A stretch of DNA of 64,000 nucleotides from Patescibacteria group bacterium (GCA_028717685.1 JAQUNI010000001.1:271451-335450); one strand, 5' to 3'; shown: positions 19,479 through 38,498, counted from the first letter of the stretch. The notes: generated by a model from the letters alone, not told the origin. Translations and numbers: made by a program.

Positions 19479-21521
<2,043 letters not shown>

Positions 21522-21561
21522 TTAAAGTGAAAAATTTAAAATTGCAATTTAAAATTCAAAA

Positions 21562-21933
21562 TTACTTTCTACCTTTTAGCCTAAGCATAGAAGCACCTAA
21601 AATTTTGGAGAGTTCAATTGCCTCTCGCAATAAAGGGTCAACCAATTCTAGCTTGATCATCTTACTATCTCTAACTAAGCACAGCCAATACTTTGTTTCA
21701 TTAGCAGATTTTAAACTATGATTCATAAAATTTTTAAAATCGTTTTTAGAAGATGCCGCCTGGGCCTCAATAATATTGGCTCCTATAGAGGTTGCTGATC
21801 TTAGAAGCTGGTGATTAATAATTTTACAAACCCCGGAAGAAGATGTGCCATTAATTAGCTTTATAATATTGAGGGAGAATTTATAAGCTCTTAACTTCAG
21901 ATCATTTTTAAATTTTGAATTGCAATTTTGCAT
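21562..21933 (-). CDS. Four-helix-bundle protein (TIGR02436 family, the '23S rRNA intervening-sequence protein' family)
   Basis: 123 aa. FKNDLKLRAYKFSLNIIKLIN…LRSATSIGANIIEAQAASSKNDFKNFMNHSLKSANETKYWL matches this family. The gene is flanked by inverted AT-rich repeats at 21510-21560 and 21905-21955. Confidence 0.75.
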   Translation of the reverse strand: MQNCNSKFKNDLKLRAYKFSLNIIKLINGTSSSGVCKIINHQLLRSATSIGANIIEAQAASSKNDFKNFMNHSLKSANETKYWLCLVRDSKMIKLELVDPLLREAIELSKILGASMLRLKGRK

Positions 21934-21967
21934 TTGTAATTTTGAATTTTACATTATTATCATTATA

Positions 21968-22005
21968 CAAAAAAACCCGCTCTTTTGAAAGGAGCGAGTT
22001 TTGGC
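21968..22005 (-). terminator. Rho-independent terminator (minus strand) after the Cys-rich protein gene
   Basis: Reverse-complement sequence CGCTCCTTTCAAAAGAGCGGG followed by TTTTTTT. Confidence 0.55.
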
Positions 22006-22032
22006 TTTTTAAATTTTAAGTTTCAAAAAATA

Positions 22033-23583
22033 TTACGGCACTGGATCCAGAGTGGGTTGCCAGGGAGGCTGGTTAGCATTTAAAGTTTTAGCGGTGATAC
22101 GGGGAGAATAGGCGGAGCAACTGCAGAGATCGCACGCCGCCACTTCAAGCCAATAGCTGGTACTAGGAGTAAGACCAGATTGCAAACGGGTGGTCACATT
22201 GCCGACATTGACCGGCGTATTGTTATTGAGATGCGCTAAATAATAAGTGGCGCCAGAAACCGCATTCCAAGCCCAAGTGATAGAGGTAGTGGTTTGAGCC
22301 GTAGAACGCGCGTTTAGAGGAGCAGGGAGAGAGGGACAGGTGACAGTGATATTAGTTGTTGCGGTGGTGGTTAACCCGCCACGCGTTACAGTAATGCTGG
22401 CAGTTTTAGTCCCAGGCGTAGAATACCTGCATCTAAAAGAGCCACCACTAATATTGGAAATAGTGCCATCAGCGCCGCAACTCCGAGCCGAATAAGTGAT
22501 AGTGCCTGTGATTGTGCCGCCGACCGCGGTGGTAAGATCAGAAGCTTGGCCAGTGATAACACTAGCTGGACTAGCTGTCAAAGTGGCAGTTAGTGTGCCC
22601 GTGACTGTGATGCTAGATGACGCTGTTGTAGTTAACCCAGCTCGCGTTACCGTAATACTGGGATATTTATAGCCTGGTGTAGAATAGGTGCAGCTAAAAC
22701 TGCCATTGGTATAATTAATGTTGGAAATCGTGCCACCAGTACCGCAGCTCTGACCAGAATAAGTAATAGCGCCTGTGGCTGTGCCGCCGACCGTGGTAGT
22801 GAGATTAGATACTTGACCAGTAGTAATGCTAGCCGGACTGGCAGACAAAGCAGCAGTTAAGGTAAGGCAAGATTTTGTGCCCGCGCAGGTGCCGCCACAG
22901 CCATTAGAGCAAGTAGAACCAGTACAAGTATTAGCCGCGCAAGCACAGCTCGGAGCCTTGGTGCCCGCGCAGGTGCCGCCACAGCCATTAGAACAAGTAG
23001 AGCCAACGCAAGTATTGGCAGCACAAGAACAACTCGGCGACTTAGTACCTGCGCAAGTACCGCCACAACTATTATAACAAACAGAACCGACACAGGTGGA
23101 AGCAGCACAAGAACAATCTGTAATTTTGCAACCCACGTAATAGGTGGCACCACAACTATCAGAACAAGTAGAACCGGGACAAGTGTATAAGGCGCACTCA
23201 GAACTATGTATGCAACCATCACTACAACTCCCAGTATTAAATGTCTGGCCGTAAGTTTGGCAATACCCGCCACAAGAGGTGTCCTGCCCGTAACGGCTGA
23301 AATAATCAAGTCTTGCAGTTAGGACGCTGCCATTAGAGCAAGTCAAAGACGGCGTAGCGCAACCGACATAATTACCTGGGTTGCTTCCTGTGCACGTAGA
23401 ATCAATAAAAGTTGAGCTACATATTGACCAGCTCCCATCAGCACAATATATACAAATCCATCCTTGATAACAAGCAGTATGACATGTGTAGGAATAGGCG
23501 GCATTAGCTGTATGAGTGCCGAAAATAAGAATACCAAAAAAAATAGCAATCAAAATAACAACGTATTTACCTTGATGGATCAT
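22033..23583 (-). CDS. Secreted Cys-rich repeat protein with C-terminal fibronectin-III-like domain (paralog A)
   Basis: 516 aa with a signal peptide. Three tandem 26-aa repeats PSC(S/A)CAANTC(V/T)GSTCSNGCGGTCAGTK are encoded by 78-nt DNA repeats at about 22862-23095. Two roughly 95-aa Ig-like repeats follow (LTAxLxASPASxxTGQxSxLTTxVGG…). The C-terminal Fn3-like domain is about 90% identical at DNA level to the 3' end of 24350..26386. Confidence 0.75.
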   Translation of the reverse strand: MIHQGKYVVILIAIFFGILIFGTHTANAAYSYTCHTACYQGWICIYCADGSWSICSSTFIDSTCTGSNPGNYVGCATPSLTCSNGSVLTARLDYFSRYGQDTSCGGYCQTYGQTFNTGSCSDGCIHSSECALYTCPGSTCSDSCGATYYVGCKITDCSCAASTCVGSVCYNSCGGTCAGTKSPSCSCAANTCVGSTCSNGCGGTCAGTKAPSCACAANTCTGSTCSNGCGGTCAGTKSCLTLTAALSASPASITTGQVSNLTTTVGGTATGAITYSGQSCGTGGTISNINYTNGSFSCTYSTPGYKYPSITVTRAGLTTTASSSITVTGTLTATLTASPASVITGQASDLTTAVGGTITGTITYSARSCGADGTISNISGGSFRCRYSTPGTKTASITVTRGGLTTTATTNITVTCPSLPAPLNARSTAQTTTSITWAWNAVSGATYYLAHLNNNTPVNVGNVTTRLQSGLTPSTSYWLEVAACDLCSCSAYSPRITAKTLNANQPPWQPTLDPVP

Positions 23584-23588
23584 AAAAA

Positions 23589-24128
23589 TTATTTTTTATA
23601 AACAGCTTTAGCCACGAAAGAATTCTGGTCAGAAATGCCCTGCTCGCTCAAAACAATAACCGTATCGCCAATTTCAAAATCAGTAAAAATTAAAACAGGC
23701 CAAGAATCTGCTTGACTTTGTGTGGAAGTACCCGAACCAAGACTAACTATTTCGGTTTGATCGTTTTTTTTAATAATTGAATAGGCACCACTCAACTGTT
23801 TCATTAGCGTTTTATCCGCAATTACCACCGCAAAGATCTTGCCTTTAAGAACTGGATTAAGCTCTTTATTATAAGATTTAATCATCAACGTCTGAGCTGA
23901 CGTATCAATACTTTCAACCGTGCCATTTAATACCGTGGCAGCGCCGGGCTCATATTCAAAGTGTTTGACATCGGCTTGTTCTTTGCCAGTCGTAGATAAT
24001 GGCGCTGGCTGATTAGTGTTACCGGGTGATATTTTAGAAGGAATGACAAAGAATATCCAATACACCAAAACAGCCCCTGCCAGAACCACTGCCGCGATAA
24101 TAATAATTATCAAAGTCTTTTTCCCCAT
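23589..24128 (-). CDS. Small N-terminally membrane-anchored protein (paralog family with 27501..27986 and 29704..30342)
   Basis: 179 aa. TM helix IIIIIAAVVLAGAVLVYWIFFVI. The C-terminal motif DFEIGDTVIVL…AKAVY is shared with the two paralogs. It lies 5 nt upstream of the Cys-rich protein gene and appears co-transcribed. Confidence 0.6.
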   Translation of the reverse strand: MGKKTLIIIIIAAVVLAGAVLVYWIFFVIPSKISPGNTNQPAPLSTTGKEQADVKHFEYEPGAATVLNGTVESIDTSAQTLMIKSYNKELNPVLKGKIFAVVIADKTLMKQLSGAYSIIKKNDQTEIVSLGSGTSTQSQADSWPVLIFTDFEIGDTVIVLSEQGISDQNSFVAKAVYKK

Positions 24129-24169
24129 AAAATAAATACGTATCCTATATATAAAAAAGGTATTTTATT

Positions 24170-24345
24170 AGCTGGCTCCATAGTCTACGAGGCTAGTGAT
24201 AGTAGAGCCAGAATATACAAGATGGAGGCGTTAAAGTCGTTCAGACTTCTTCAGAACTAGAAGATCTGAAGAGATTAAAAATAACGGCCTGTATTTTGGC
24301 TCCACAGCCCCTCGCTTCGCTCGGGGACTATGGAGCCAACGATGG
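24170..24345. repeat. Palindromic repeat (TGGCTCCATAGTC family), copies 2 and 3
   Basis: tggctccatagtctacgaggctagtgatagtagagccag and tggctccacagcccctcgcttcgctcggggactatggagccaacgatgg. They share the half-sites and the GGAGCCAACGATG tail with 11826-11980. Confidence 0.6.
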
Positions 24346-24349
24346 AATA

Positions 24350-26386
24350 TTATGGCACCGGTTCCAGAGTAGGTTGTCCGGGAGGCTGGTTACCACTTAG
24401 AGTATTAACCGTGACACGAGGAGAATAGGCGGAGCAACCGCAAAGATTGCACGCCGCCACTTCAAGCCAATAGCTGGTATTAGGAGTAAGACCGGATTGT
24501 AAACGAGTGGTCACATTGCCGACATTGACCGGCGTATTGTTATTGAGATGCGCTAAATAATAAGTGGCGCCAGAAACCGCATTCCAAGCCCAAGTGATAG
24601 AGATGGTGGTTTGAGCCGTAGAATGCACATTGGCAGGGCTGGGAAGAGAGAAAGCGGTATAGCACTGCCCATTCATTACATAGTCGTTGGCATTGCAACA
24701 AGCCGCCGTGCCGTCGCAAGCGCGAGCATTGGTGGGACTAATATACACTTCGCTGGCATCGTCGCTGCAACATTGAGCTTGGTTATTGGGCGGGGCAGAC
24801 TCTGGAAATTGAGAAGAGAGAAGCCAAACTCCGGTGGCTGTGGCTTTATTCGGGTTAGTTGCCGTGTTGTCCCATAGATTGGTTGCTCCTGTGCAGCAAG
24901 CCTGGCTCGTGTCAGGAGTGCAAGTGGCAGGGGCAACACAATTCACTGTGCATTCTTGTTTTTCATTAATATTACCACCTGAATATGTATTAGCGGGACA
25001 GGTAAAACTACCGGTGTCGGCAAAGCAACCGGCAGTAATCTTTAAATTTCCAGCAGTAACAGGACATTTCACGGTTCGCGATTCACTGCTCCAAGATCCC
25101 TGACCATTAATGTTAGAAGATTGACACCAGAGCACATCCCCCGAGCCAGATGTACATCCCGCGGCAGGTTGAATATTAGTAAGCCCCATCCTGACCTCAT
25201 AAGGAGAGCTAGGTCCGGTGTTGAAATATTCATAAGAAACATTAAAATTGGAACCGACATTAGCGCTAGTCGGACAGCTTAAATTGCGCAAGGAGCAGGT
25301 AGGATAATTAGTGCAATCTTTTGTGCCCGCGCAAGTGCCGCCGCAGCCATTAGAACAAGTGGAACCAGTGCATGTGTTCGCCGCGCAAGAACAATTAGGA
25401 GTTTTCGTGCCGGCAGGACATTTCTGACCACAACCATTATCTGGCTCCTGACCTAGACAATATGTGGAAGGGGCGGGACAAGAGGGCTGTTTGGTTCCCG
25501 GCGTGGAACAACTCCCGCCACAGCCATTACTCGGATGTTGGTTAGCGCAATAAGTGGAAGGATCAGGGCAGGAAGGGGCGCAAGGAGGACTTTGACAGAC
25601 TCCCCCGACACAATTGTGATTGCAACAATCTCCGGCAGAAATACAGCCTGAGACGCCATCCTCTAAACAAGGACCGCAGCAATCGCAGGTTCCGGAGGCG
25701 CAGGCGCTTTCAGGAATTCCGACGGCGGACAACAAATTTGGGCAAACATCATTCCCTACTCTGCAGGAAGCGCTTGTTGCTTGGCTGGTAGCACCCCTAT
25801 AAGAGCAAAAATCCACATTACAGGCGCGGCATTGCCTCCCTTCGCAAAAGGATCCACCGCAACACTCTGTGGCTGTACTACACGATTCACCAAGGGATTT
25901 GCAGGAGGGAGTTGAAGAACATTTACTTCCATATGAATCTTTATTGCATTGACATTTTTCCCCACTAGGACATCCGCTGCCCTCCCAACTATCCGTATGC
26001 CCTATAAAAGTATAAGAAGGTGTTCCATACCCCCCTATATCACACCTATGTGTCTCCTCTATATTACAATATACACATAAATCGGGTGTAATATCGTGGC
26101 AAGACCTTATCGAACCAGTCGTGCACCAACCACTTAGCTCTTGATAATTGAATCCATAAAACCAACCACTTGGACAACTATAATCTATCCACTTATTATT
26201 AGATCCCCACTTAAAATTATCATCCACAATACCACAGCTTTGTTCGCATGGTGTTACAGCTTTAGCTTCAGAATATAGGAAACTGAAAAAAATTATTGTA
26301 ATAAATAAAGGAGAAATAATTTGAAAAAATTTTACGGATAGCCATGAATTAGATAATTTTGCTATTTTTTGATTTTTATGTTTCAT
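24350..26386 (-). CDS. Secreted Cys-rich repeat protein with C-terminal fibronectin-III-like domain (paralog B)
   Basis: 678 aa with signal/TM, about 90 Cys, and repeats CPxPSTYCxxQxPxNGCGxxCxxGTKxPxC x2. It has one copy of the NCSCAANTCTGSTCSNGCGGTCAGTK repeat. The C-terminal 100 aa are nearly identical to paralog A. Confidence 0.75.
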   Translation of the reverse strand: MKHKNQKIAKLSNSWLSVKFFQIISPLFITIIFFSFLYSEAKAVTPCEQSCGIVDDNFKWGSNNKWIDYSCPSGWFYGFNYQELSGWCTTGSIRSCHDITPDLCVYCNIEETHRCDIGGYGTPSYTFIGHTDSWEGSGCPSGEKCQCNKDSYGSKCSSTPSCKSLGESCSTATECCGGSFCEGRQCRACNVDFCSYRGATSQATSASCRVGNDVCPNLLSAVGIPESACASGTCDCCGPCLEDGVSGCISAGDCCNHNCVGGVCQSPPCAPSCPDPSTYCANQHPSNGCGGSCSTPGTKQPSCPAPSTYCLGQEPDNGCGQKCPAGTKTPNCSCAANTCTGSTCSNGCGGTCAGTKDCTNYPTCSLRNLSCPTSANVGSNFNVSYEYFNTGPSSPYEVRMGLTNIQPAAGCTSGSGDVLWCQSSNINGQGSWSSESRTVKCPVTAGNLKITAGCFADTGSFTCPANTYSGGNINEKQECTVNCVAPATCTPDTSQACCTGATNLWDNTATNPNKATATGVWLLSSQFPESAPPNNQAQCCSDDASEVYISPTNARACDGTAACCNANDYVMNGQCYTAFSLPSPANVHSTAQTTISITWAWNAVSGATYYLAHLNNNTPVNVGNVTTRLQSGLTPNTSYWLEVAACNLCGCSAYSPRVTVNTLSGNQPPGQPTLEPVP

Positions 26387-26391
26387 AAAAG

Positions 26392-26421
26392 CTTGACATA
26401 ATTAAAGAATTAATTTATACT
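26392..26421 (+). promoter_or_regulatory. Sigma70-like promoter for the dockerin-like gene
   Basis: TTGACA, a 17-nt spacer, then TATACT, about 100 nt upstream of the ATG at 26520. Confidence 0.45.
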
Positions 26422-26519
26422 AAATTTAGTGATTGCTTCTAAAATCGTCTCTGAAATGTTTTGATTAAAGGATGATTAGCAAGAATTTTGTGACTCTTAG
26501 ATACCATGGAGGGTTTAAA

Positions 26520-27284
26520 ATGAAAAGAACTTTGATTGTTTTAGTTGTGTCCTTTATATTCGTATTAATGGTCAATGCTGATACCTCGGAAATATATATT
26601 CAGACGAAAAACCAGTCAGACATAGTGACATCAATTCCCGTTTTGTTTACTCAATCTAGATTTCTCATAATCTCCGTAGGGTTGCCGACATCAGAATTAA
26701 ACCCGAATATAACCACCGCAAAGGTTGCCCTAAACTGTAAGGTTATTGCTGTAGTAAGTAATTGCATCGCATCTATAAACGAAAACCAAGTTACCTTTAG
26801 CTGTATCCGTCCCGAGGGAGGATTTGGTAAAATTCTAGCTGAATGGCAAAGTGGACAAATTCCCACACTACCTAAATGTGATCCCCCTTCCTTGGCGATA
26901 GAAATGGAAAACCCTAAGATTTGGTCAGCCTCAGCACAACTACCGTTGGGCAGTATCTGTCAGATCAAAGCAATGGGTAGTACAATATGGGTCAAAGGAA
27001 GCAAGGTACGTTGGACCGATTGGAGTAATGTTGAACTCATTAATAGACCCGGCGACATAAATCTGGATGGTGTCGTGAATATTCTGGATTTAGTGGCAAT
27101 ATCAAAACAATTTGGTGTTCCAGTATCTCCAGAGGTCCCGGAGGATATGAACTGGGATGGAGTGATTAATAGAGAAGATCTAATGTTGGTGGGCGAAAAA
27201 TTCGGTACGAAATATAGTAGTGTCCCCCAACCCGCGCCTCCCAATCGGACCATTATAACCTGGTCTTCCATCAAATTAAGGTGA
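26520..27284 (+). CDS. Secreted protein with C-terminal dockerin-like (double Ca-binding repeat) domain
   Basis: GGAGGG RBS. Signal peptide MKRTLIVLVVSFIFVLMVNA. The C-terminus DINLDGVVNILDLVAISKQFG…DMNWDGVINREDLMLVGEKFG matches the two-segment dockerin type I repeat. Confidence 0.65.
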   Translation: MKRTLIVLVVSFIFVLMVNADTSEIYIQTKNQSDIVTSIPVLFTQSRFLIISVGLPTSELNPNITTAKVALNCKVIAVVSNCIASINENQVTFSCIRPEGGFGKILAEWQSGQIPTLPKCDPPSLAIEMENPKIWSASAQLPLGSICQIKAMGSTIWVKGSKVRWTDWSNVELINRPGDINLDGVVNILDLVAISKQFGVPVSPEVPEDMNWDGVINREDLMLVGEKFGTKYSSVPQPAPPNRTIITWSSIKLR

Positions 27285-27288
27285 ATTC

Positions 27289-27345
27289 TGACCACAATCA
27301 AAGAGCCTTTCCGTTCTTTGCACTGTGGTCTTTTTTATTATTTCA
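27289..27345 (+). terminator. Rho-independent terminator
   Basis: Long hairpin GACCACAATCAAAGAGCC…GCACTGTGGTC followed by TTTTTTATTATTT. Confidence 0.55.
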
Positions 27346-27500
27346 AAAAGCTCGGATAACCCCCTCTACCCCTTTTGAGGAAAAACATTAGACCCCCTCT
27401 CACACTCCCCGCAGGTCAAGGAGAAGAAGTGCAACTGCTGGACTCCATAGTTTTCCGTTCAAGCCGGACTATGGAAACAACGCGCGAGCAAGGTTTGGAA

Positions 27501-27986
27501 TTATTTTATCTCCACCACCTGCACGGCGGCGGCGGTAATAGTGTTTTTGCCGTTGATATTTTCCCCTGCCACAATATTCACTTCATCCCCCACTTTAAGA
27601 TCGGACAAAGAGATATCCTCGGTTTTTAAAGGATCATCAGGATTAGAAGGAACAACGCGGCGGGAGTAATGTGTGTCTTCCTGCAATTCAGCTGTAAAAT
27701 CAGTGTCTTCTGCTAAAAAATAATTCTGCTCCTTTTTCGCCTGAACCTTTAACGCGCCATCTTGAATTTCCGTAATCTTACCCATTAAAGAATAAAATAC
27801 CTCTTCCGTGTTCACGGCGAAAGAGGGATTCTGGGGCGGGGAGAAAACTGCGGGAGTTTTTTCTCCTTTAGGCCAGAAAAAGGCAACAAAGATCAAACCC
27901 CCCACAATAACAACTCCAATTACAAAAAGAATAATCCAGGAAGCAAGACCGGATTTTTTATTTTGAGCGCGTAAGGTTGAAGACAT
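27501..27986 (-). CDS. Small membrane-anchored protein (paralog of 23589..24128 and 29704..30342)
   Basis: 161 aa. TM helix ILFVIGVVIVGGLIFVAFFW. C-terminus DLKVGDEVNIVAGEN…TAAAVQVVEIK. Confidence 0.55.
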   Translation of the reverse strand: MSSTLRAQNKKSGLASWIILFVIGVVIVGGLIFVAFFWPKGEKTPAVFSPPQNPSFAVNTEEVFYSLMGKITEIQDGALKVQAKKEQNYFLAEDTDFTAELQEDTHYSRRVVPSNPDDPLKTEDISLSDLKVGDEVNIVAGENINGKNTITAAAVQVVEIK

Positions 27987-28100
27987 ATAATTTTAATAAA
28001 ATATTAGTTTTTATTTTAACGCTAACAACTCCCTTTCATTAGATTATGTTTAGCGGCTTGCTTCTATTATACTACGGACTAAGAATGCCGTAAAATCCAA

Positions 28101-29717
28101 TCAAGGTTTAATGCCAGACCAAGAAGGAAGAAGCGTGGCGGGGTCCAAAAATCCCGGCGGAGGATTCACCAGAACCCGGCCATCATATTTCACTAATTCT
28201 GAAGGCGTATTATCGGCGTCTGTATATCTTCTTTCCAAATTCAAAGCATTGCGGGCAACGAGGGATCCCTCAATAACCAATCCCGTGTCTTCGGTATCAG
28301 CCGTATAAACATCGCCCCAGACATAAAAATTACCCACGATATGCTTCACATTGGCTTGAATTATTAAATCCCCGCCTATGACAAAGCCCGCCGACGGTAT
28401 TTTCGCCCGTTCATCCACCGTCCCCATATTCGGATCATAATAAACATTATTGGCAATAGACAAATCGCCATCCACGACCACCGTCCCCCCTCTTGCTAAA
28501 AAGAGGGCGGGGGGCTCGCTATTCAAAATAGCGGGCGGCTTTGGAATAATGGGATTCGCCGCGATTGTTAAATTGCCATCGCAGTAACGAATATTGCGGT
28601 CGCGCTGGTCACCATTCCCCCATAAAGAAGTGGTTTGGGGTAAAATGGGAGAATCCGGAATATGCACTGCCTGCCAATAACTATCCGAACAATTCGGGCT
28701 TAACCCTTCCGTTAAAGATTGTTTATCCACTGCCGTAAAAACAAGATTCTTATGAGGAGGATAAGGAGTGAAAATTTGGTTAATGCCGCTTGTAACATTG
28801 CTATTAATGCCTTGTCGGGCGGTAATCACGGAATCGGCTGTATTGTTTCCCCGCGTCTCTCTATTGTTAATGCCGCCATTGCTGTGAATGTCGCCCCAGA
28901 TCGTCTGCCACCAAGCTTCGCCCACAATCACCCATTTGTCATCTTGACACCCTCCACTCCCACAGTCAGGATTCGCCGCGGTAATCTCAACATGATTTTG
29001 CACCGTACTATTAATTCTTAAACTTAACTGAATGCTGTAACTGCCTGGCGCCACAGTATTAAAATCCCAATAAAAAGTGTCTCCCACCCGTCGACTCCAA
29101 GTTGGATTAGCGCCTAAAACTACAGCTCCCCCGCCCACGGGTGTATACTTTATTTCTAAACCGTAAGCGTTGTCATTAGCCACGGTATAACTAATGGAAT
29201 AGGAAGCGGTAGTACCCGCGCTGACCCTTGAGGGACCGCTATCAAAATCAACGGTTAAAAGCGCGTTATTATGAATATCGCAAGAGATGTTAGATGAGGG
29301 ACTAGAAGTATTCCCATTAATATCAGTGGCTGTGCTGTAAACAGAGTACAGATTCTTAATGGAAAAGCTATGATTTGCCTGCTGCAACGTACCCGAAGGA
29401 ACAGTACCGGAGCTAGGCGCTCTGGTATTACTGCTGCCATCATTCCAAAAAAATGTGTAGTAAAGCTGATCACCTTCTGGATCGCTGGCTCTGGATTCAA
29501 AAGTGTAACCCTGATTTACAAAGCCTATGCAAATGGGCTGACTGAGGCGGCTGCATCTGCATTTGCCGTTAGCGTCAGGGTCACAGTTAAAAAAAGTGGC
29601 GGCTTGGGCGATCAAAAGATTAAAAAAGAACGTCGCGGAGACGAAAATAAAAACCGCGCCTAAGATTTTGATGTTTTTTATCGTTTTAGAACTCATAAGA
29701 AAATTAACGATAATCAC
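28101..29717 (-). CDS. Secreted protein with PKD-like domain and C-terminal beta-rich region (hypothetical adhesin)
   Basis: 538 aa with a signal peptide. An N-terminal PKD-like segment (YYTFFWNDGSSNTRAPSSGTVP…HSFS) is followed by Ig-like repeats. It overlaps the upstream small membrane-protein gene by 14 nt. Confidence 0.6.
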   Translation of the reverse strand: MIIVNFLMSSKTIKNIKILGAVFIFVSATFFFNLLIAQAATFFNCDPDANGKCRCSRLSQPICIGFVNQGYTFESRASDPEGDQLYYTFFWNDGSSNTRAPSSGTVPSGTLQQANHSFSIKNLYSVYSTATDINGNTSSPSSNISCDIHNNALLTVDFDSGPSRVSAGTTASYSISYTVANDNAYGLEIKYTPVGGGAVVLGANPTWSRRVGDTFYWDFNTVAPGSYSIQLSLRINSTVQNHVEITAANPDCGSGGCQDDKWVIVGEAWWQTIWGDIHSNGGINNRETRGNNTADSVITARQGINSNVTSGINQIFTPYPPHKNLVFTAVDKQSLTEGLSPNCSDSYWQAVHIPDSPILPQTTSLWGNGDQRDRNIRYCDGNLTIAANPIIPKPPAILNSEPPALFLARGGTVVVDGDLSIANNVYYDPNMGTVDERAKIPSAGFVIGGDLIIQANVKHIVGNFYVWGDVYTADTEDTGLVIEGSLVARNALNLERRYTDADNTPSELVKYDGRVLVNPPPGFLDPATLLPSWSGIKP

Positions 29718-30342
29718 TTTTATCTATTCGGATTGCCCGAAACACCGTATCACGAGCGCTCTTCACCATACCCAAAACAAGAATTTGATCGCCGATTTCA
29801 AGTTCACTGACTTTGATCTTGCTCACCTGAAATAATACCTTGCCATCTTCCGCTTCCACGGTGCGCGGCACAGTAACCAATCTTATTTCCGTATCCGCAG
29901 TGATTTGCGCTTTGAGCTTTTTCTGGCCTTGTTCCGCGGACGGCTCCTCAAAGGCAAGGAAATCCGACCCTATTTCTGTAATGGAGCCGCTGTGCATAAT
30001 AATGAATTCACTAGGCGCGCTCGGCACCTTTGGCTTCGCTTCAGCGGTGGAAGATCTAGACCCACTTGCTTCTTGCTCGAGTGTTTCACTGGTAGAAGAT
30101 GGCGAGGCGCCGCTCGGAGCGCTTTCCTGCTCGCTCCCCTTCGCAATACTACCCTCATAATCGGGAGGGGCTACTGGAATCTTTTGATGCTCCGGAAAAT
30201 TTGTCGCAACTGGACTGGTATCGCCCGAAGGAAAGGATGGAACAATCTCTTCTGGTTTTTGTACAAAATAAATCTGGTAAACGCAAAACCCAGCAATAAC
30301 CAATAAGAAAAATAAAAATAGGAAAAGTTTATGGGAAAGCAT
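29704..30342 (-). CDS. Small membrane-anchored protein with Ser/Glu-rich linker (paralog of 23589..24128 and 27501..27986)
   Basis: 212 aa. TM helix LFLFLFFLLVIAGFCVYQIYFV. C-terminus ELEIGDQILVLGMVKSARDTVFRAIRI. Confidence 0.55.
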   Translation of the reverse strand: MLSHKLFLFLFFLLVIAGFCVYQIYFVQKPEEIVPSFPSGDTSPVATNFPEHQKIPVAPPDYEGSIAKGSEQESAPSGASPSSTSETLEQEASGSRSSTAEAKPKVPSAPSEFIIMHSGSITEIGSDFLAFEEPSAEQGQKKLKAQITADTEIRLVTVPRTVEAEDGKVLFQVSKIKVSELEIGDQILVLGMVKSARDTVFRAIRIDKSDYR

Positions 30343-30469: not shown

Positions 30470-31300
30470 TCACTTGCTTAGGCTCTGCTCGGAAAAAATT
30501 ACATAGTCAAAATAACCCGACACTCCGGCCTTAGTGCTGCTATAAGTGGACTCGATCGCTTTTTTATAAGACGAAAAAATGCCTACAGAATCAATTCTTA
30601 CTTTATCCGTAATATCAACTCCATTATCAAAACAAATCTGAAAATCGGAAACAAAATCCTTCAATGGTTTAACGCGCACTAGGTTATTCGGTTTATTCAC
30701 AAGTTGCCGCACAATTTCTCCTCCTTCACTCTGTAACTCCCCATAATCAAAGGTCTCTTTATAAACCGTCTGCGTTCCCTGCCCAAATTTATAATTAGCT
30801 AAACTTTCAGGACCAAAGTCGCTAAAATTGTCTTCCCAGCCCAACCACGTTACCTCCACCTCTTCATTGGCATTACCCAGCCTTTGCGACCAAGACAAAT
30901 GCATTCTCGTGGAATTGCCTAGATTATCAAAATCTAAGGTTTCATCCATATCTAAACTATCTTGGGTATAATAATTGCTACAATTAAAAGTATCATCCAC
31001 GGTGTAGCTATAATTGGCGCTCGTCAGTTCGCGAAGGGGGGTATTAGGCATATTACTGGTATTCCCATTAACCATAATCTCATAAAGAGCTCTTTCCATG
31101 CCGCTGTCCGCCGCGTAATAAGCAATAATACCGCTACCCACATCCCTGGCCATCTTGATATTTCTCAAGGTGAGGGTGGCAATTATTAAACTAACCAAAG
31201 AGACAGTGCCTAATACAAGAAGGGCATAAAGCAAGGCAACACCGGACCTAGATGTTTTCAAAAATACACGGTGATTTAATTTTAATCTTGCTGACCTCAT
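30470..31300 (-). CDS. PilX-like type IV pilus minor component (PilX N-terminal domain)
   Basis: 276 aa. The N-terminus RSGVALLYALLVLGTVSLVSLIIATL…AYYAADSGMERALYEI resembles PilX_N. It is the last gene of the minor-pilin block. Confidence 0.5.
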   Translation of the reverse strand: MRSARLKLNHRVFLKTSRSGVALLYALLVLGTVSLVSLIIATLTLRNIKMARDVGSGIIAYYAADSGMERALYEIMVNGNTSNMPNTPLRELTSANYSYTVDDTFNCSNYYTQDSLDMDETLDFDNLGNSTRMHLSWSQRLGNANEEVEVTWLGWEDNFSDFGPESLANYKFGQGTQTVYKETFDYGELQSEGGEIVRQLVNKPNNLVRVKPLKDFVSDFQICFDNGVDITDKVRIDSVGIFSSYKKAIESTYSSTKAGVSGYFDYVIFSEQSLSK

Positions 31301-31999
31301 TTATCTTTTATAAATCCTCTGCGTGATTGTGGTCTGAACCCGAATAGAAGCCTGCTCTTCCGGCTTTGCTGTATTTTTGCTCTGGCTTAAACTCAAAACG
31401 ATTGTTACCCGCGGCTGTTCATTTGTTCCTCCGGAAACAAAAGGGTCAGTCACGGGCACAATCCAGAATTTCAAATCATCCACCTTCACCTGATTACTTA
31501 AAATATTCTCTGCCGCCGCCGTCCCTATCTGCATTTTTAATTTATTGTCGCCGCCTTTAAAAAAGGTAATACTCTCCTTGTCCTGACGCACTAAAACCAA
31601 GGAAGAGGCGGGGTTATTGATAGAACCACTGTAATCAATACCATACCGCCTTACCGTTTGGGCGATTGTTTCCAGGGCATGAGATGCCTCGAACTGCACC
31701 TTTTGATCAATGCTATTCTTGCGTTGAGCTTTTGTGATGGACAAAAAAATGCCGCAGATTGCCACTAGCGCCAAAGCAAATACCGCCATTGCCACCAACA
31801 TTTCAATGACTGTAAACCCCGTTAGCCCCGTTAAGAATTTATTTCTAACGGGATGAACTTTCTTTAACGGGATAAACCCCCTGCCGCGTTTTTTAAACCA
31901 AACCGCGCGCGACAAAAATCCGCATCTCTCTCTTGATGCCGCGAAAATTTCAACATTGCGTGTTTGCGTATTATTTGTTGATCCCATATATTGCTTCAT
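31301..31999 (-). CDS. Type IV minor pilin (prepilin-type N-terminal cleavage/methylation domain); start uncertain
   Basis: Class III signal LTGLTG|FTVIEMLVAMAVFALALVA, with E at +5. The track ORF gives an improbable roughly 60-aa leader. The real start is unresolved. A palindromic element (31815-31853) overlaps the leader-coding region. Confidence 0.6.
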   Translation of the reverse strand: MKQYMGSTNNTQTRNVEIFAASRERCGFLSRAVWFKKRGRGFIPLKKVHPVRNKFLTGLTGFTVIEMLVAMAVFALALVAICGIFLSITKAQRKNSIDQKVQFEASHALETIAQTVRRYGIDYSGSINNPASSLVLVRQDKESITFFKGGDNKLKMQIGTAAAENILSNQVKVDDLKFWIVPVTDPFVSGGTNEQPRVTIVLSLSQSKNTAKPEEQASIRVQTTITQRIYKR

Positions 32000-32044
32000 C
32001 CACAGCGGGATACCCCATCATGTGGTTTCCCATTTGCTCTAAAA

Positions 32045-32677
32045 CTAAAAATCACGCCAATTATATAAATGCGCTTCTACTTTGACTATTTTGTTTTTCC
32101 AACCCACTTCGCTCACAATCACAACCGCATTGCCGCTTGTATATTTACGGATTGCACGGCTGTATTGTGTTGCTGTTCCTGCCGCGTGAGTATAAAACCC
32201 GTTTGCGTCTAGATAAAGCTGTTTGTTCGCCGAGGGAGAACATCCCCCTCCTCTGCACCCCAAATAACCAGTGTAATCCACTACGTAATAATCATTGGCG
32301 CTGTTGTTGCGGTTATTTTTCATAGGATTACTGCCGCTAAAAAGATTATCGCCTGCGAGCCAATAGGAATCGCGGGAAGCGCGCACTAATTCTATGCCCT
32401 CTTCGGCTAAATAGTAGGCAGTGGTTTTTTCCTTCATCTGACGCATCGCCGTAGTGGAATATATGACCAAAGAAAGACTGCCAATAAGTCCAACAACGAT
32501 GATAAAAATCGCGATCAGAGTCTCCAGAAGCGTCATCCCTTCTTCCCCATTCGCCACGGGCTTACGAGGCGCAACGCGGCAATATGCAGGGCGCTGGGCA
32601 GGCGGGAATATCCCGCTGCAGCATCTATAAATAAATGTTAACGGGATGAAAAAGAATCGTTTTAAATTAATTTTCAT
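32045..32677 (-). CDS. Type IV minor pilin (PilV-like); probable GTG start near 32557
   Basis: Prepilin motif ANGEEG|MTLLETLIAIFIIVVGLIG. A GTG codon (PVANGEEG) would give a canonical 7-aa leader. The upstream 40 aa of the track ORF are Cys/Arg-rich and probably not coding. Confidence 0.6.
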   Translation of the reverse strand: MKINLKRFFFIPLTFIYRCCSGIFPPAQRPAYCRVAPRKPVANGEEGMTLLETLIAIFIIVVGLIGSLSLVIYSTTAMRQMKEKTTAYYLAEEGIELVRASRDSYWLAGDNLFSGSNPMKNNRNNSANDYYVVDYTGYLGCRGGGCSPSANKQLYLDANGFYTHAAGTATQYSRAIRKYTSGNAVVIVSEVGWKNKIVKVEAHLYNWRDF

Positions 32678-32771
32678 AAAATTAATTCTTCAGCAAGCCC
32701 CGTTAGAAATTTATTTCTAACGGGGCTAACGGGGTAAAGTTCAGGATAATATTCTGAATAAATCCGAAGCA

Positions 32772-33266
32772 TTAAAAACTGCTCTCTATTAACCCTGAAC
32801 TAGCGTCTACAAAAACTGTGCCTATATGTCCTATGCTATTTGTAAAAGTAATCGTTAAAGATTCATGTCCATTAATCCACATCGCGCCGTGGGGGGACTT
32901 GAAAATAATAGTGTCATTTATAGGATTCATCGTGATTTTAGAAGGCAGAGTAATAACCTCCAAAGCCTCGCCTGAATCGCTCTGACCGTTATCGTTTTTG
33001 TCCGCGAAAAAAGTATAAACATTGTTTGAGGTCAAATAAACTCCGCACCCGCCAGGGACGCTGCCGTTGATTATCTTGCCGCCAGCAACCATTGTCTGCG
33101 CCTGCCTTAAAACATTGGCCATATTTTGCACCGCAAAGCGCAGGTTGGTCTCCTCATTGCCTTTGCGCATATTAGCCACCAAGATCGCGGCAATCAACCC
33201 AATAACAAAACTCACTATGAGCATTTCTACTATAGTGAAGCCCCTTTGAAAAAAAACGCTTTTTTT
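32772..33266 (-). CDS. Type IV pilin; N-terminus extended beyond the ATG-called ORF (non-ATG start)
   Basis: Translating upstream of the annotated Met gives …KKSVFFQRG|FTIVEMLIVSFVIGLIAAIL, a textbook prepilin cleavage site. There is no in-frame ATG before the TAG at about 33270. Start is probably ATT/ATA/CTG, or a frameshift is present. Confidence 0.6.
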   Translation of the reverse strand, partial: KKSVFFQRGFTIVEMLIVSFVIGLIAAILVANMRKGNEETNLRFAVQNMANVLRQAQTMVAGGKIINGSVPGGCGVYLTSNNVYTFFADKNDNGQSDSGEALEVITLPSKITMNPINDTIIFKSPHGAMWINGHESLTITFTNSIGHIGTVFVDASSGLIESSF

Positions 33267-33506
33267 GCGACGCAGTATGTATGGAATAATTTTTAATTTC
33301 TAATTTTTCTGGCTTCGCTAGATCTCGCACAGCGAGACAATTTTTATTAAATTTATAATTAACTATTTTTTAAACTTGTATCAATCAGGGGGTGAAAAAG
33401 TTTGAAAATTAACTTATTGAAAATTTAATAAAAATTAGAAATTGAAAATTGTTCCAACCTTCTTGTCAACGGTTGGGTTCTTACTTTTGTGAAATGGTTT
33501 CATTCT

Positions 33507-33896
33507 TTACCCCGGGCCAGTCTCGCCACCGCTTTTGTATCCCTCATACGGAATAAAAGGGTTATCCCGCCCTACTGGCCCCACCTCTATAGGCACCTCG
33601 CCAAATATAACCAACTGGGAAAAACGCGGATCAGTAAGTAAATCGGTTTTGAGCTTAGAAGAGGGAATATTTTGCGAGGGAGTGGCAATACTGGGGGCAG
33701 CCACAATCGCCCCAGGCACTACCGGAGTAATATCAGGCACTGCTCCAAGTTCTGCTGGCACAGGCTCTGAAGATTTCTTGCCAAAAAAACTAGTATATAA
33801 TAGATAACCAGCTACTAAAATCGCTACCAGAAAAATACCTATAAGTATTGTTTGCTTGCGTTTAGCTTTGTCCATAATAGTAAATTTATTACTCAA
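33507..33896 (-). CDS. Hypothetical membrane-anchored protein in the pilus locus (PilP-like position)
   Basis: 129 aa with an N-terminal TM helix and a Pro/Val-rich linker. Lies between the pilO and pilin genes. Confidence 0.5.
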   Translation of the reverse strand: MSNKFTIMDKAKRKQTILIGIFLVAILVAGYLLYTSFFGKKSSEPVPAELGAVPDITPVVPGAIVAAPSIATPSQNIPSSKLKTDLLTDPRFSQLVIFGEVPIEVGPVGRDNPFIPYEGYKSGGETGPG

Positions 33897-33968
33897 TTGT
33901 TCGATTGCTCAATTGTTGGAATTTAACCTTCATCTTCAACTTCAACAATAGAACAATCAAACAATAAT

Positions 33969-34688
33969 TTATTTTAAGTAGTACGTCCTTAACTCTATTT
34001 TAAAAGTTAAAACCCTGTCTTCAAATTTCACTCCACCCACCTCGCCTTCACCGCTCTTACTGGATTGAGAATCGCCTCCTTTGGTGTCAAAATCCACGGA
34101 AACTACATCTAAAAACCGTAAGTTTTTTTGCACATCTTCTAAATATCGCATAAAAACATCATACCGTCCGGTTAAAGAGAGAGAGACTTTTAAAGTCGCA
34201 TAACCTTCGCTTGGAGCTGGAGAGACTAGAGGAACCATCGCGGGAAGATTAGAGGCAGTATTATTATCTTGGGTTTTATTTTGCCCTAAATCCGCCGCGT
34301 CTGTCGCTGGAGGCTCTATAGGATTCTCACTCCCCTTCTTAATTTCTTCGCTATAACTCACTTCTTCCATGAGGATTCCATTTTTTATGGCGAGAGCTTC
34401 CAGTTGAACCAAAAGATTGGGTATATCCTTTTCCGAAGGCAAGGCTAAACTCAAAGTGCGCACCTGCTCTTTGACGCCCTCATAATCTTTGACTAACTTT
34501 TTTGTGTCTTCTAGAGCCTTCTTGCTGTTCGCGAGACTTGTTTCTTCTCCTTTGATCTGCGTCCCTATATTCCTCCAAGCATCATACTGCGGCTTTAAGA
34601 AATAAAAACCCGCCCCTATCGCCACCAAAATGACTACTATAATGATCAGATTTGAATTTTTGTAAATCGTCTTAATGTTAAATTGCAT
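33969..34688 (-). CDS. pilO: Type IV pilus inner-membrane component PilO-like
   Basis: 239 aa. TM helix plus coiled-coil, then LSLALPSEKDIPNLLVQLEALAIKNGI, typical of PilO. Confidence 0.6.
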   Translation of the reverse strand: MQFNIKTIYKNSNLIIIVVILVAIGAGFYFLKPQYDAWRNIGTQIKGEETSLANSKKALEDTKKLVKDYEGVKEQVRTLSLALPSEKDIPNLLVQLEALAIKNGILMEEVSYSEEIKKGSENPIEPPATDAADLGQNKTQDNNTASNLPAMVPLVSPAPSEGYATLKVSLSLTGRYDVFMRYLEDVQKNLRFLDVVSVDFDTKGGDSQSSKSGEGEVGGVKFEDRVLTFKIELRTYYLK

Positions 34689-34927
34689 AATGTCAGAACT
34701 TTTTAATTTTTAATGCTTCGGCTTTGCTCAGCGCCTCTTCAAGCTCTTCGAGTCTGAAGACTCATCCCGTTCAGGATCTGAGACCCTTCAGGGTCGAACG
34801 ACAGAGTCTGAACGGCCTGAACTTTGCTGGAGGGTTAATTTTTTAGCCCAAGGCGCCCTAGAAGCGCGGAAATTTTGAATTTATCCCGCAACTTCGTGAG
34901 AGAATACCATGTAGGGAGGCGCGGGAT

Positions 34928-35482
34928 TTATTTTTGCCACGCCTCTTCCTTAAAGGTTAAATCAGCCTGGAAAGAAATCACGGCTTGATCTTCAGTAACA
35001 TCCAAGCTCGCAGATGCGACCTCCACTTTTTCTATAGATTGTTGCTGCTCCCAGGCTTTAAGTTGGCGGGCTAAAGATTGATAATTTCGCGTATAAGCGG
35101 GGAGGCTAACCTTACGGCTATCAATATCACCTTTGAAACTCGTATAAAAAACATCGGGAATAGTAACATCACCCAAGGTCTGAAAAAACGCGACCCAATA
35201 CATCCGACGGTTCAAAAGCCGATCCAAACTATCCAACTGTTTCTGGGCGATAAGCGCTTGAGCAAGCTGTGCTTTCGAATCTTGGATTTCTTTATTCACC
35301 CCTTCAGCCTGGCTCTTTAGACCACTTAGTTTGGCATCCTCTCTCTTCTGCAAGAAAGAAAAACCAAAATATACCCCTCCTCCTAAAAGTATAATCAAGG
35401 CCAATACAAAAATACTGATGTTGCGCAACTTCTTCTTGCGTTTTTCCCCTTCATCTTCAGGGATTAAATCAATTTTGAGCAT
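34928..35482 (-). CDS. pilN: Type IV pilus component PilN-like
   Basis: 184 aa. N-terminal KIDLIPED plus a TM helix (fimbrial assembly PilN pattern), then coiled-coil. Confidence 0.55.
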   Translation of the reverse strand: MLKIDLIPEDEGEKRKKKLRNISIFVLALIILLGGGVYFGFSFLQKREDAKLSGLKSQAEGVNKEIQDSKAQLAQALIAQKQLDSLDRLLNRRMYWVAFFQTLGDVTIPDVFYTSFKGDIDSRKVSLPAYTRNYQSLARQLKAWEQQQSIEKVEVASASLDVTEDQAVISFQADLTFKEEAWQK

Positions 35483-35564
35483 AAAATTTTAATATTTTAT
35501 TTTGATTTCGTTGAGAACTAATTATCTAACTGATGTGATATAATTATCCTCCTTAATTTGATAA

Positions 35565-35700
35565 TTTTAAATTTTAATTCAATTTTAAAATCCTAATTTT
35601 AAATTTTAAAACCAAGGGAAAGAAGAAAGGGTTTTAAAATTAAAAAATTTAAAATTTGGATTTGATTTAAAATTTAGAATTTAAAATTCAAATTATTTAC
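35565..35700. repeat. AT-rich dispersed repeat of about 110 nt, copy 2
   Basis: See 17468-17580. Confidence 0.6.
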
Positions 35701-36329
35701 TCTACTTTCTTCCCGCATCTCAAGCACTTCAAAAATCCCGTAACCCATTTCCCTTCCCTGCCCGTGTCCTGCACCACATCTAAAACTAAAGAGCCGCCGC
35801 AACTTCCGCAAGAAAATTTGGGATCCACCCCTAAAGCTTTTGCCAACCGCACTGCATCGCCACGGTATTGATCTAACCTTAAATTAAAATGCCCTCCTAA
35901 TTTCTCACCCCCTGAAGATACTACAGACTTCGGTCTTCCTAGATGCCCTCTCACTTTTTCCACGACATCATCAGGCGAAAAGGTCGCTTGAATCAAAAAA
36001 TCATCCGCCCCCAAAGATAAGGCTTTGTCAATATCCTCCTGACGACCTAAATGTGAAAAAACCAAAACCGGAGTATCCTTCATCTGGGCGTCTTTTTTTA
36101 AAGTATTGATTACTTCAAAACCATCTACGCGCGGCATCATAATCCCCGTAATCACTAGATCCGGCTTTTTCTCAAAAGCGACGTTTAAACCATCTAATCC
36201 ATCTTTTGCTTCAAAAACATCAAAGCCTTCCTGCTTAAACTTTTTAGCATAAATTCCCCTTAAATCTACCGCGTCATCAATAAGTAAAACACTAGATCTT
36301 TTGCTTTGATTTTGATCTTTTTGATTCAT
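35697..36329 (-). CDS. Response regulator receiver protein with C-terminal Cys4 zinc-ribbon (PilH-like position)
   Basis: REC domain (LLIDDAVD…DLVITGIMMPRVDG…FSHL…LGADDFL) followed by CGSCGGS…CLRCGKK. Confidence 0.7.
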   Translation of the reverse strand: MNQKDQNQSKRSSVLLIDDAVDLRGIYAKKFKQEGFDVFEAKDGLDGLNVAFEKKPDLVITGIMMPRVDGFEVINTLKKDAQMKDTPVLVFSHLGRQEDIDKALSLGADDFLIQATFSPDDVVEKVRGHLGRPKSVVSSGGEKLGGHFNLRLDQYRGDAVRLAKALGVDPKFSCGSCGGSLVLDVVQDTGREGKWVTGFLKCLRCGKKVE

Positions 36330-36344
36330 AAAATAAGATTTAAA

Positions 36345-37112
36345 TTAAGTAATTAAATTCAAATACCATTTCAAAATTCTCTCCCCCTCCAGCATAGTAA
36401 TGATAGCCGCGATGGTTAGAAAAGTGCCAAAAGGCACCGCGCTCTTTAAAGTCTTCTTCTGGAGAGCTATCAATAACAAACCAACTATACTGCCCAAGAC
36501 AAAGGCAATAAACAATGCGACTAAAACTTGAGACCAGCCCAAAATGAAGCCTAAAAGAAATCCGAGTTTAACATCCCCTCCCCCCATCCACTTGCCTTTG
36601 GACACTAAAACAATTATAGCAAAAAATCCTCCTGATATCAAACTGCCTAAAAGCGCTGCCGGAAAACTAGGCTTCCCTAAGAAGATAGTTGCCAGAATTG
36701 CCAATGTCGCGCCCAACAAGATTATTTTATCAAGAATTAAATAATACTTCAAATCATACACAAAGATCACAACGAAAATACTAACAAAAAATAAATTAAA
36801 AAACAGCAAAGGATTTATACTTCCGACTTTTATATAGAAAAGAGCAAATAAAACGCCGCAAGTCAGCTCAACCAAAGGATACTGCCAGCTTACTCTTTTA
36901 TGACAGTAACGGCACTTGCCGCCTAGGATAATAAAACTTGCTACCGGAATCAAATCATACCAAGCTAAGCGGTGTTTACAGAAAGGGCAAAAGGAGGAGG
37001 GGTGAATAAGAGACTTTTTGATTTTGGAGCGATAAATGACGACATTAAGAAAACTGCCGACAGAGAGACCGAATAAAAATATAATTAATAAATTTAATGT
37101 AGGTATTAGCAA
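36345..37112 (-). CDS. pilD: Prepilin peptidase (A24 family)
   Basis: N-terminal zinc cluster CPFCKHRL…CRYCHKRV, eight TM helices and conserved Asp residues. Confidence 0.85.
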   Translation of the reverse strand: MLIPTLNLLIIFLFGLSVGSFLNVVIYRSKIKKSLIHPSSFCPFCKHRLAWYDLIPVASFIILGGKCRYCHKRVSWQYPLVELTCGVLFALFYIKVGSINPLLFFNLFFVSIFVVIFVYDLKYYLILDKIILLGATLAILATIFLGKPSFPAALLGSLISGGFFAIIVLVSKGKWMGGGDVKLGFLLGFILGWSQVLVALFIAFVLGSIVGLLLIALQKKTLKSAVPFGTFLTIAAIITMLEGERILKWYLNLIT

Positions 37113-38443: not shown

Positions 38444-38498
38444 TTATTTTATCCACCTCCCTTCTGATGAAATTTTAAATTCAGAATTAAAAATTAAT

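Follow-up and report, generated by a model that had tools for sequence, protein, structure and literature searches.

A run of small membrane protein and mosaic secreted protein genes adjoining a type IV pilus cluster in a Patescibacteria genome

The DNA analyzed here is a window of 64,000 nt (the whole stretch, counted from its first letter) from a Patescibacteria group bacterium (GCA_028717685.1, JAQUNI010000001.1:271451-335450). Within it, a series of genes for secreted and membrane proteins, running from the gene for protein A to that for sm3 (22033-30342), adjoins a complete type IV pilus cluster. A preliminary description made from the sequence alone had listed seven open reading frames (ORFs) in this region, all of which were recovered:

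30470-44410, minus strand: complete type IV pilus cluster (Pfam and NCBIfam), directly upstream on the same strand
29704-30342, minus strand: sm3, small single-pass membrane protein of 212 aa, encoded by the first gene past the pilus minor-pilin block
28101-29717, minus strand: 538-aa secreted protein with a Sec-type signal and a PKD-like domain
27501-27986, minus strand: sm2, small single-pass membrane protein of 161 aa
26472-27284, plus strand: dockerin protein, secreted, 270 aa, encoded between sm2 and B
24350-26386, minus strand: B, secreted mosaic protein of 678 aa
23589-24128, minus strand: sm1, small single-pass membrane protein of 179 aa, encoded 5 nt upstream of A
22033-23583, minus strand: A, secreted mosaic protein of 516 aa

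Read along the minus strand, the order is therefore sm3, the 538-aa protein, sm2, B, sm1, and A. The pilus cluster upstream encodes PilM, PilB, PilT, PilC, three pilins, PilD, a response regulator, PilN, PilO, two minor pilins, and a PilX-like protein. The region had been described as an accessory island. This proved only partly correct: it is not free-standing but continues the pilus cluster, and its first two genes are conserved, while the dockerin gene and the content downstream of sm2 do vary.

Comparison with homologous loci showed where the conservation ends. An sm3-type gene directly precedes the gene for a 538-aa homolog in every locus found (L002/L003, L005, L007, L016, and L019), and the two genes overlap by 4-14 nt or are separated by a 7-nt gap. 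The order PilX-like gene, sm3, 538-aa homolog, sm2 is present in L002/L003/L006 (94% identity) and in L007/L016 (70%), and the sm3 and 538-aa pair also occurs in L005 (34%) and L019 (38%). Orthologs of sm2 follow the 538-aa homolog in L002, L007, L016, and L018, and in all three lineages in which the upstream side is visible, minor pilins, PilX-like gene, sm3, 538-aa homolog, and sm2 stand in this order. Further downstream, the gene content differs by lineage:

Window: dockerin gene, B, sm1, A, and a gene for a 23S-rRNA-intervening-sequence protein (23S-IVP)
L002 (closest relative): a coiled-coil gene and an unrelated secreted-protein gene, then the B homolog B'
L007, L016, and L018: retropepsin-like and nucleotidyltransferase-like genes (L007:13044-14556)
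L019: an IS630-like transposase gene (L019:2625-3671)
L005: ligA directly; a B-like gene lacking Fn3 lies upstream of the pair instead

The comparison between relatives that the preliminary description had proposed thus shows that the sm3 and 538-aa cassette is conserved together with the pilus genes, and that the genes beyond it form a variable, shuffled accessory set. As mobile-type genes occur there in L019, L007, L016, and L018, the site past the sm3-538(-sm2) block may be an integration hot spot. At the far end of the window's own set, the 23S-IVP gene (21562-21933), which encodes a four-helix bundle, is enclosed by 44-nt AT-rich inverted repeats (82% complementary) at 21518-21949. These flanking repeats, and the absence of the gene from the A-ligA junction in L001 and L005, make it look like an inserted cassette.

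The N-termini of all four large proteins are basic at first and then hydrophobic, up to an AxA-like site, as is typical of Sec-type signals; these were read directly from the sequence. No prepilin (class III) signal or N_methyl match was found by Pfam and NCBIfam in A, B, the 538-aa protein, the dockerin protein, or sm1-3. Neither the sequences nor NCBIfam revealed a C-terminal sorting motif with a hydrophobic helix, of the LPXTG or PEP-CTERM type, in A, B, or the 538-aa protein: the C-termini are NQPPxQPTLxPVP in A and B, without a hydrophobic stretch, and LLPSWSGIKP in the 538-aa protein. SLH, LysM, and other wall-binding domains were not found in the proteins of the region (Pfam, NCBIfam). 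Sec-type N-termini, a high cysteine content, and the company that the cysteine modules keep in other proteins agree with the earlier view that the large proteins are secreted. None of the seven proteins matched a PADLOC model for anti-phage defence, and a reading of the region as a defence system was dropped on that ground. Protein A is identical to NCBI PHW01_01535 (P0004). The NCBI record of B (P0001, 488 aa) begins at an internal codon, 190 aa too late, and lacks the signal peptide; we regard this record as N-terminally truncated, since the full 678-aa ORF includes a signal peptide, and alignment with the homologs P0002 and P0003 extends over its first 190 aa. Look-ups of A and P0001 by exact protein sequence returned no entry.

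The small proteins had been described as three anchored paralogs. For sm3, the architecture comprises an N-terminal transmembrane segment, a low-complexity linker, and a C-terminal β-rich ectodomain. The sm2 and sm3 families are indeed homologous (hhalign 96.7%, E 4.3e-10), whereas homology of sm1 could not be demonstrated, as it shares with them only the architecture and a short, weak C-terminal motif. An ortholog of sm1 is present in L001. Searches of Pfam, NCBIfam, and PDB profiles with the small proteins gave nothing significant; the best match to DUF5666 (PF18914) had an E-value of 0.068 and 13.9 bits against 27, a weak similarity found for two of nine members.

Pairs of a small anchored and a Cys-rich secreted protein recur in two other Patescibacteria lineages. 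In a Pacebacteria genome (L008), an sm-type gene whose product is 30% identical to sm2 (BLASTP 4e-16) lies 24 nt upstream of the gene for the module-rich protein P0007. A Patescibacteria-type contig carries two tandem cassettes of a small anchored and a Cys-rich secreted protein (L014:216-3721). The large genes of these cassettes have a common 3′ end of approximately 240 nt, with 86-88% nucleotide identity and a sharp boundary, and encode a C-terminal domain different from that of A and B; it is the A/B design evolved in parallel. By the same token, the window can be read as three cassettes: sm3 with the 538-aa protein, sm2 with B, now parted by the dockerin insertion, and sm1 with A.

The preliminary description had called A and B paralogs. 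They are not so over their full length, but are mosaics, alike only in their modules and in the last 99 aa, which are 85% identical. From N- to C-terminus, A consists of a signal peptide, a Cys-rich region, three modules, two 89-aa repeats, an Fn3 domain, and the tail NQPPWQPTLDPVP. B consists of a signal peptide, a Cys-rich region with two C-x6-7-C-x5-CC-x3-4-C-x4-C motifs, variant modules, a 6-Cys module, β-rich and Cys-rich middle domains, an Fn3 domain, and the tail NQPPGQPTLEPVP, and contains 69 cysteines in total. The parts are located as follows:

22867-23118, minus strand: three canonical 28-aa modules of A
22336-22866, minus strand: two 89-aa repeats of A (79% nucleotide identity)
22069-22335, minus strand: Fn3 domain of A
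22134-22318, minus strand: gene-conversion tract in A, inside Fn3 (alignment columns 64-248)
25397-25573, minus strand: two 4-Cys variant modules of B
25313-25396, minus strand: one 6-Cys module of B
24386-24640, minus strand: Fn3 domain of B
24451-24635, minus strand: gene-conversion tract in B, inside Fn3 (alignment columns 64-248)

Cysteine modules had been reported for both proteins; A has three canonical 6-Cys modules, but B only one, next to its two 4-Cys variants. The Ig-like repeats that had likewise been ascribed to both exist as repeats in A only, and these 89-aa repeats matched nothing in Pfam or the PDB that would support an Ig fold. The Fn3-like domain at the C-terminus, in contrast, was confirmed over its full length of approximately 90 aa. 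Although both copies remained below the Pfam cutoff for PF00041 (16.4 bits for A and 20.4 for B, against 25), a profile of six sequences matched only Fn3 domains in the PDB, including those of RPTP-sigma (4.7e-6), chitinase A1 (8e-5), and neogenin, and a single-sequence search of the PDB found 1k85 at an E-value of 0.002. In a distant relative (L005:1-507), the C-terminal part of a protein resembling B (CxPDTxQACC ... NQPPDPPVIEPP) is encoded upstream of an sm gene paired with that for a 515-aa protein. Because this partial protein has the tail but no Fn3, the domain appears to have entered B later, between its Cys-rich domain and the conserved tail.

Recent homogenization of the 3′ ends of A and B had been proposed on the basis of an identity of about 90% and an identical run of 95 nt. 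Alignment of A (22029-22328) with B (24346-24645) gave 89% identity over 300 nt and a longest identical run of 96 nt, and the likeness stops sharply upstream, where the preceding 63 columns are only 47.5% identical. We aligned these ends with those of A' and B' from the relative L001 (alignment A2), a Candidatus Doudnabacteria metagenome-assembled genome (JGI Ga0265296_1002408) in which the gene order B', sm1', A', ligA is the same as in the window, and counted the informative sites:

Columns 1-63: 26 sites group by gene, 0 by genome
Columns 64-248: 0 sites group by gene, 16 by genome
Columns 249-349: 6 sites group by gene, 2 by genome

In the middle tract of 185 nt, identity between paralogs reaches 93.5% in the window and 100% in L001, compared with 87-88% between orthologs. 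As the sites of the tract group by genome and those of both flanks by gene, gene conversion of the Fn3 tract acts in both lineages. Assembly collapse or chimerism, which would make the identity of A and B an artefact, is excluded and has next to no chance of being correct. Repeats do break assemblies, and two contigs of the same JGI assembly, Ga0265296_1002408 (at the start of L001) and Ga0265296_1001359 (at the end of L003), both terminate inside a B homolog, consistent with repeats breaking short-read assemblies. However, a single contig of 722 kb (722,217 bp) crosses both A and B, the independent assembly of L001 shows the same design with B', sm1', and A' on one contig, and the two copies differ at 11% of sites and keep gene-specific flanks.

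Concerted evolution of surface-protein paralogs by gene conversion is known from, for example, Neisseria opa/pil and the MgPa repeats of Mycoplasma. As in these systems, paralogs within a genome are closer over a bounded tract than orthologs between genomes. In A and B, however, it is the constant C-terminal Fn3 domain that is homogenized and the N-terminal part that varies, and neither silent cassettes nor phase variation are in evidence.

The module, previously given as 26 aa long, has a period of 84 nt, or 28 aa, with cysteines at positions 2, 4, 9, 14, 18, and 22. Whether it is EGF-like or novel had been left to structure prediction. AlphaFold2 folded the module array of A (22867-23118) with a mean pLDDT of 94.9, each module forming a short helix and a β-hairpin. 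This fold had no match in the PDB or BFVD (Foldseek), the arrays had no Pfam match even at E<=10, including EGF, TSP_1, and other Cys-rich repeat families, and no NCBIfam model covers the module. A word-indexed profile search added only 2 new proteins, owing to its limit on candidate selection, and was replaced by an exhaustive one against 1.84 billion representative proteins (E<=0.001), in which only 87 module-bearing clusters were found. A literature search for Cys-rich modules in Patescibacteria found nothing. The module is thus an undescribed small disulfide domain, outside described families and with no structural match.

Among 203 module instances, 116 have all six cysteines, and 41 have lost C9 alone. 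C2 and C22 are lost together in 23 instances (15 proteins), and C4 and C14 in 15 (11 proteins); an aromatic residue takes the place of the cysteine lost from position 22 or 14, and single losses of C2, C4, C14, or C22 are rare. These paired losses, with their aromatic replacements, point to disulfides C2-C22 and C4-C14 rather than metal binding, which would leave C9-C18 as the third bond by elimination. EGF domains have the disulfide pattern 1-3, 2-4, 5-6, knottins 1-4, 2-5, 3-6, and α-defensins C1-C6, C2-C4, C3-C5. With approximately 30 residues and six cysteines, extracellular, and arranged as tandem spacers, the module resembles EGF-like domains, TSP_1, and knottins, but its likely pattern differs from those of EGF and knottins. 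That pattern (C1-C6, C2-C4, C3-C5) would equal the one of α-defensins, although the predicted fold is a helix and a hairpin and not a three-stranded sheet.

Elsewhere, the module is accompanied by extracellular domains throughout, namely TSP_1, fn3, dockerin (at the end of P0033), RCC1 (a propeller fused to the module in P0012/14/17), SdrD_B, S8 protease, and Laminin_G, and also by type IV pilin N-termini; one module-bearing protein matches Cu-binding_MopE. TSP_1 repeats stand beside the module in 7 of 74 proteins. TSP_1 was rejected as the identity of the module itself, as these matches are separate, neighboring domains. P0040 (L010:574-1914) is a true type IV pilin, with a GFTLVEIIVV N-terminus and a Pfam N_methyl match, in which four 28-aa modules follow the pilin head; two PilZ-domain genes lie downstream. 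It is comparable to the modular type IV pilins with grafted C-terminal domains of Streptococcus sanguinis, PilB and PilC (PMC8179133). A and B differ in carrying ordinary Sec signals and are not pilins.

A DsbA-like enzyme had been noted in the window, and its gene was confirmed:

55945-56835, minus strand: DsbA-like thiol-disulfide oxidoreductase (Thioredoxin_4 1.3e-29, DSBA 5.5e-21)

In another small-genome organism, a DsbA-like gene (L011:163-999) lies 3 kb upstream of the gene for a protein with 13 modules (P0006).

The 538-aa protein contains a PKD-like domain at approximately residues 57-145, a second β domain, an invariant WGDIHS, and a C-terminal part of short β strands. Its true start is probably the ATG at 29696, as homologs start at MSSKTIKN. 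The family is small, with 8 homologs in 5.8 billion proteins. In Pfam, PKD (PF00801) remained below threshold (13.8 against 23.5 bits), but the family profile matches the PKD domain of 4xed (E 3.7e-6), and the confident segment of the AlphaFold2 model superimposes on the same structure with a TMt of 0.81 and an rmsd of 2.2 (Foldseek), which bears out the PKD-like domain recognized earlier. The model is confident only at approximately residues 65-145, the PKD part, and the rest of the Foldseek output was mostly generic Ig-fold noise. A WWQTxWGDIHS motif (residues 269-279) is invariant or nearly so in the family down to 35% identity, and lies in the low-confidence part of the model.

The dockerin-like protein indeed carries a genuine C-terminal type I dockerin, which exceeds the Pfam cutoff (Dockerin_1, PF00404; 1.1e-7, 32.4 bits against 22.9; residues 193-241, DNA 27048-27194), with a duplicated Ca-binding segment visible as DINLDGVVNILD and DMNWDGVINRED. 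Its gene, on the opposite strand, is a lineage-specific insertion; in the closest relative, the same slot holds an unrelated gene. The protein shares the type I dockerin and its two Ca-binding-type repeats with cellulosomes, but in contrast to these no cohesin, enzyme, or carbohydrate-binding module (CBM) was found as a partner in the window, and the dockerin gene is strain-specific.

Patescibacteria live attached to other microbes. With moderate confidence, we read the region as pilus-linked cassettes of surface-displayed proteins for contact with a host or substrate. On this reading, a Patescibacteria genome related to Candidatus Doudnabacteria carries, at the distal end of its type IV pilus genes, three tandem cassettes, each encoding a small single-pass membrane protein and then a large Sec-secreted protein without an anchor of its own. 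The large proteins would be exported by Sec and oxidized by the DsbA-like enzyme. Their modules, each a short helix and β-hairpin presumably held by three disulfides, may form stiff, protease-resistant stalks when arranged in tandem. Recurrent gene conversion keeps the Fn3 tract of approximately 185 nt alike in A and B, both of which end in the same Fn3 domain and a conserved tail. Retention at the surface would be non-covalent, most likely through the adjacent small membrane proteins, the shared C-terminal domain, or both, and the variable N-terminal parts would be presented to the host cell or substrate alongside the pilus. For the large proteins of the cassettes, a place at the surface or a part in attachment is probable.

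The position of the 538-aa gene right after PilV/PilW/PilX-like genes, and the binding-type domains of its large product, recall PilY1-type tip adhesins (Pseudomonas/Myxococcus) and PilX1/PilX2 of the Saccharibacterium TM7x. Type IV pili are so far the only attachment machinery shown experimentally in Patescibacteria, namely in Saccharibacteria (PMC11623550); in TM7x, PilX1 and PilX2 have no canonical prepilin signal, and PilX2 is needed for host binding (PMC11623550). PilX2 contains an RCC1 propeller, the domain also fused to the 28-aa module in P0012/14/17. Our reading would fit these pilus-operon proteins with accessory domains, non-canonical signals, and host binding (PMC11623550), although no similarity to them was found here. 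In the 538-aa protein, no pilin-like N-terminal helix, β-propeller, or sequence similarity to PilY1 or PilX was detected, and the gene of a small membrane protein is tightly coupled upstream of its own. On a bolder and doubtful view, to which we give a small chance, the cassette would be an unrecognized two-component surface-display system of Patescibacteria in which a DUF5666-like ectodomain captures its neighbor, possibly via the constant C-terminal domain kept uniform by gene conversion. The conserved first cassette, sm3 with the 538-aa protein, would then function within the pilus itself, perhaps as an adhesin at its tip or associated with its base that sets host specificity.

Several observations weigh against the reading as pilus-linked display cassettes. 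The pilus side is visible in three closely related lineages only, as the contigs of L005 and L019 end short of it, a 127-nt AT-rich gap separates the PilX-like gene from sm3, and module-bearing proteins elsewhere are mostly not encoded beside pilus genes. The large proteins have no prepilin (class III) signal and are thus not pilins. B is not directly preceded by an sm gene, homology of sm1 to the other two small proteins could not be demonstrated, and tethering by the small proteins is purely conjectural. The disulfide map consists of sequence statistics without coordinates, with C9 lost alone in 41 modules and C9-C18 assigned by elimination. Finally, the model of the 538-aa protein is mostly of low confidence (mean pLDDT 46.6, from a 7-sequence alignment), including its C-terminal half, and neither a PilY1-like propeller nor similarity to PilY1 was found in the protein.

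The rival explanations are less well supported. A, B, and the 538-aa protein could be structural proteins of the cell wall or S-layer zone and not adhesins, and the position of their genes beside the pilus genes could be accidental or reflect common regulation of the envelope. All are secreted and rich in β structure or disulfides, the Fn3 and tail common to A and B could be a wall-binding module, and module proteins elsewhere have housekeeping neighbors. We consider this unlikely, however, as homologs are very few (18 and 8 among 5.8 billion proteins), close relatives differ in gene content, as core envelope parts seldom do, and no SLH, LysM, or other wall-binding domain is present. It is more improbable still that the three are secreted effectors or toxins whose Cys-rich N-terminal parts, with the knottin-like C-C-CC-C-C motifs of B among them, act on the host, and that the small proteins are cognate membrane immunity or escort proteins. 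In favor are the tight pairing of small and large genes in several lineages, the joining of variable N-terminal to constant C-terminal parts, and the RHS and S8 protease domains among module-bearing proteins. Yet scans of A, B, and the 538-aa protein with Pfam, NCBIfam, and PADLOC found no toxin or enzyme domain. Moreover, the small gene lies upstream and encodes a large extracellular domain, unlike compact immunity proteins, and polymorphic toxins usually vary at the C-terminus, whereas the variable part here is N-terminal.

There is also little reason to think that the dockerin plugs into a cohesin scaffold and that the Fn3, PKD, and Cys-module proteins form a cellulosome-like complex for binding or degrading carbohydrates, which we regard as very improbable. 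Such a complex is suggested by the true type I dockerin, by the second dockerin-terminated protein, P0033, and by the frequency of Fn3 and PKD in glycoside hydrolase systems, from which the best PDB matches (chitinase A1 Fn3, collagenase PKD) partly derive. Nevertheless, neither the proteins of the region nor the scanned ORFs of the window include a cohesin, CBM, or glycoside hydrolase, and the dockerin gene is absent from the closest relative. Binding of metal by the cysteine modules, as in metallothionein or MopE and without disulfides, seems the most far-fetched of these four: the very high cysteine density and the one module-bearing protein with the Cu-binding_MopE match speak for it, but cysteines are lost in specific pairs with aromatic replacements, as for buried disulfides, signal peptides occur together with a DsbA-like enzyme, and the confident AlphaFold2 fold has regular secondary structure.

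Within pilus-linked display as we propose it, the conserved secreted PKD protein and its small membrane partner at the end of the pilus operon are candidates for host recognition, as is the variable set of mosaic proteins adjoining them. The 28-residue module, with its three predicted disulfides, could mark extracellular proteins in poorly annotated genomes, and A and B illustrate cleanly how one constant domain can stay uniform in two surface proteins that otherwise diverge. Modular surface proteins that undergo concerted evolution are already known from bacteria; what is new here is a small domain not described before, together with a possible, suggestive connection to type IV pili. Current views are not overturned by this locus, which adds a specific, testable piece.

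Palindromic repeats of one family had been reported between the genes, and this was borne out by 8 matches to GGCTCCATAGTC at up to 2 mismatches, against 2.8 expected, and by the hairpins that accompany them:

24174-24337, no strand: composite two-hairpin element in the gap between B and sm1, bounded by the 12-nt inverted repeat GGCTCCATAGTC / GACTATGGAGCC
27441-27478, no strand: single hairpin, also of the GGCTCCATAGTC family, in the gap where the dockerin and sm2 genes converge
11834-11965: sister copy of the composite element, outside the region from A to sm3

The composite elements are 130-165 nt long, each has an internal hairpin pair and is itself followed by AACGATG, and they look like a miniature inverted-repeat transposable element (MITE) or repetitive extragenic palindrome (REP). 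The hairpin by the stop codon of B, within 24174-24337, has a folding energy of -32.6 kcal/mol (z -6.5), and that at 27441-27478 one of -18.3 kcal/mol (z -3.0, minus strand). L001 has only the hairpin adjoining the B stop, and not the whole composite element. A search of the whole window against Rfam returned tRNAs only, and the hairpin repeats matched no family. The sister copy at 11834-11965 overlaps the 5′ end of an ORF for an AddA-like helicase (8769-11879).

Two further features lie outside the region. At 1749-5261, on the minus strand, a 1170-aa protein is encoded that combines ten LVIVD repeats with a metallophosphatase and a FlgD-Ig domain. At 56997-63933, also on the minus strand, three large ORFs without a Pfam match (56997-61339) are followed by one for a VirB4/TraG-like ATPase (62125-63933), and this set is possibly a type IV secretion or conjugation-like module.

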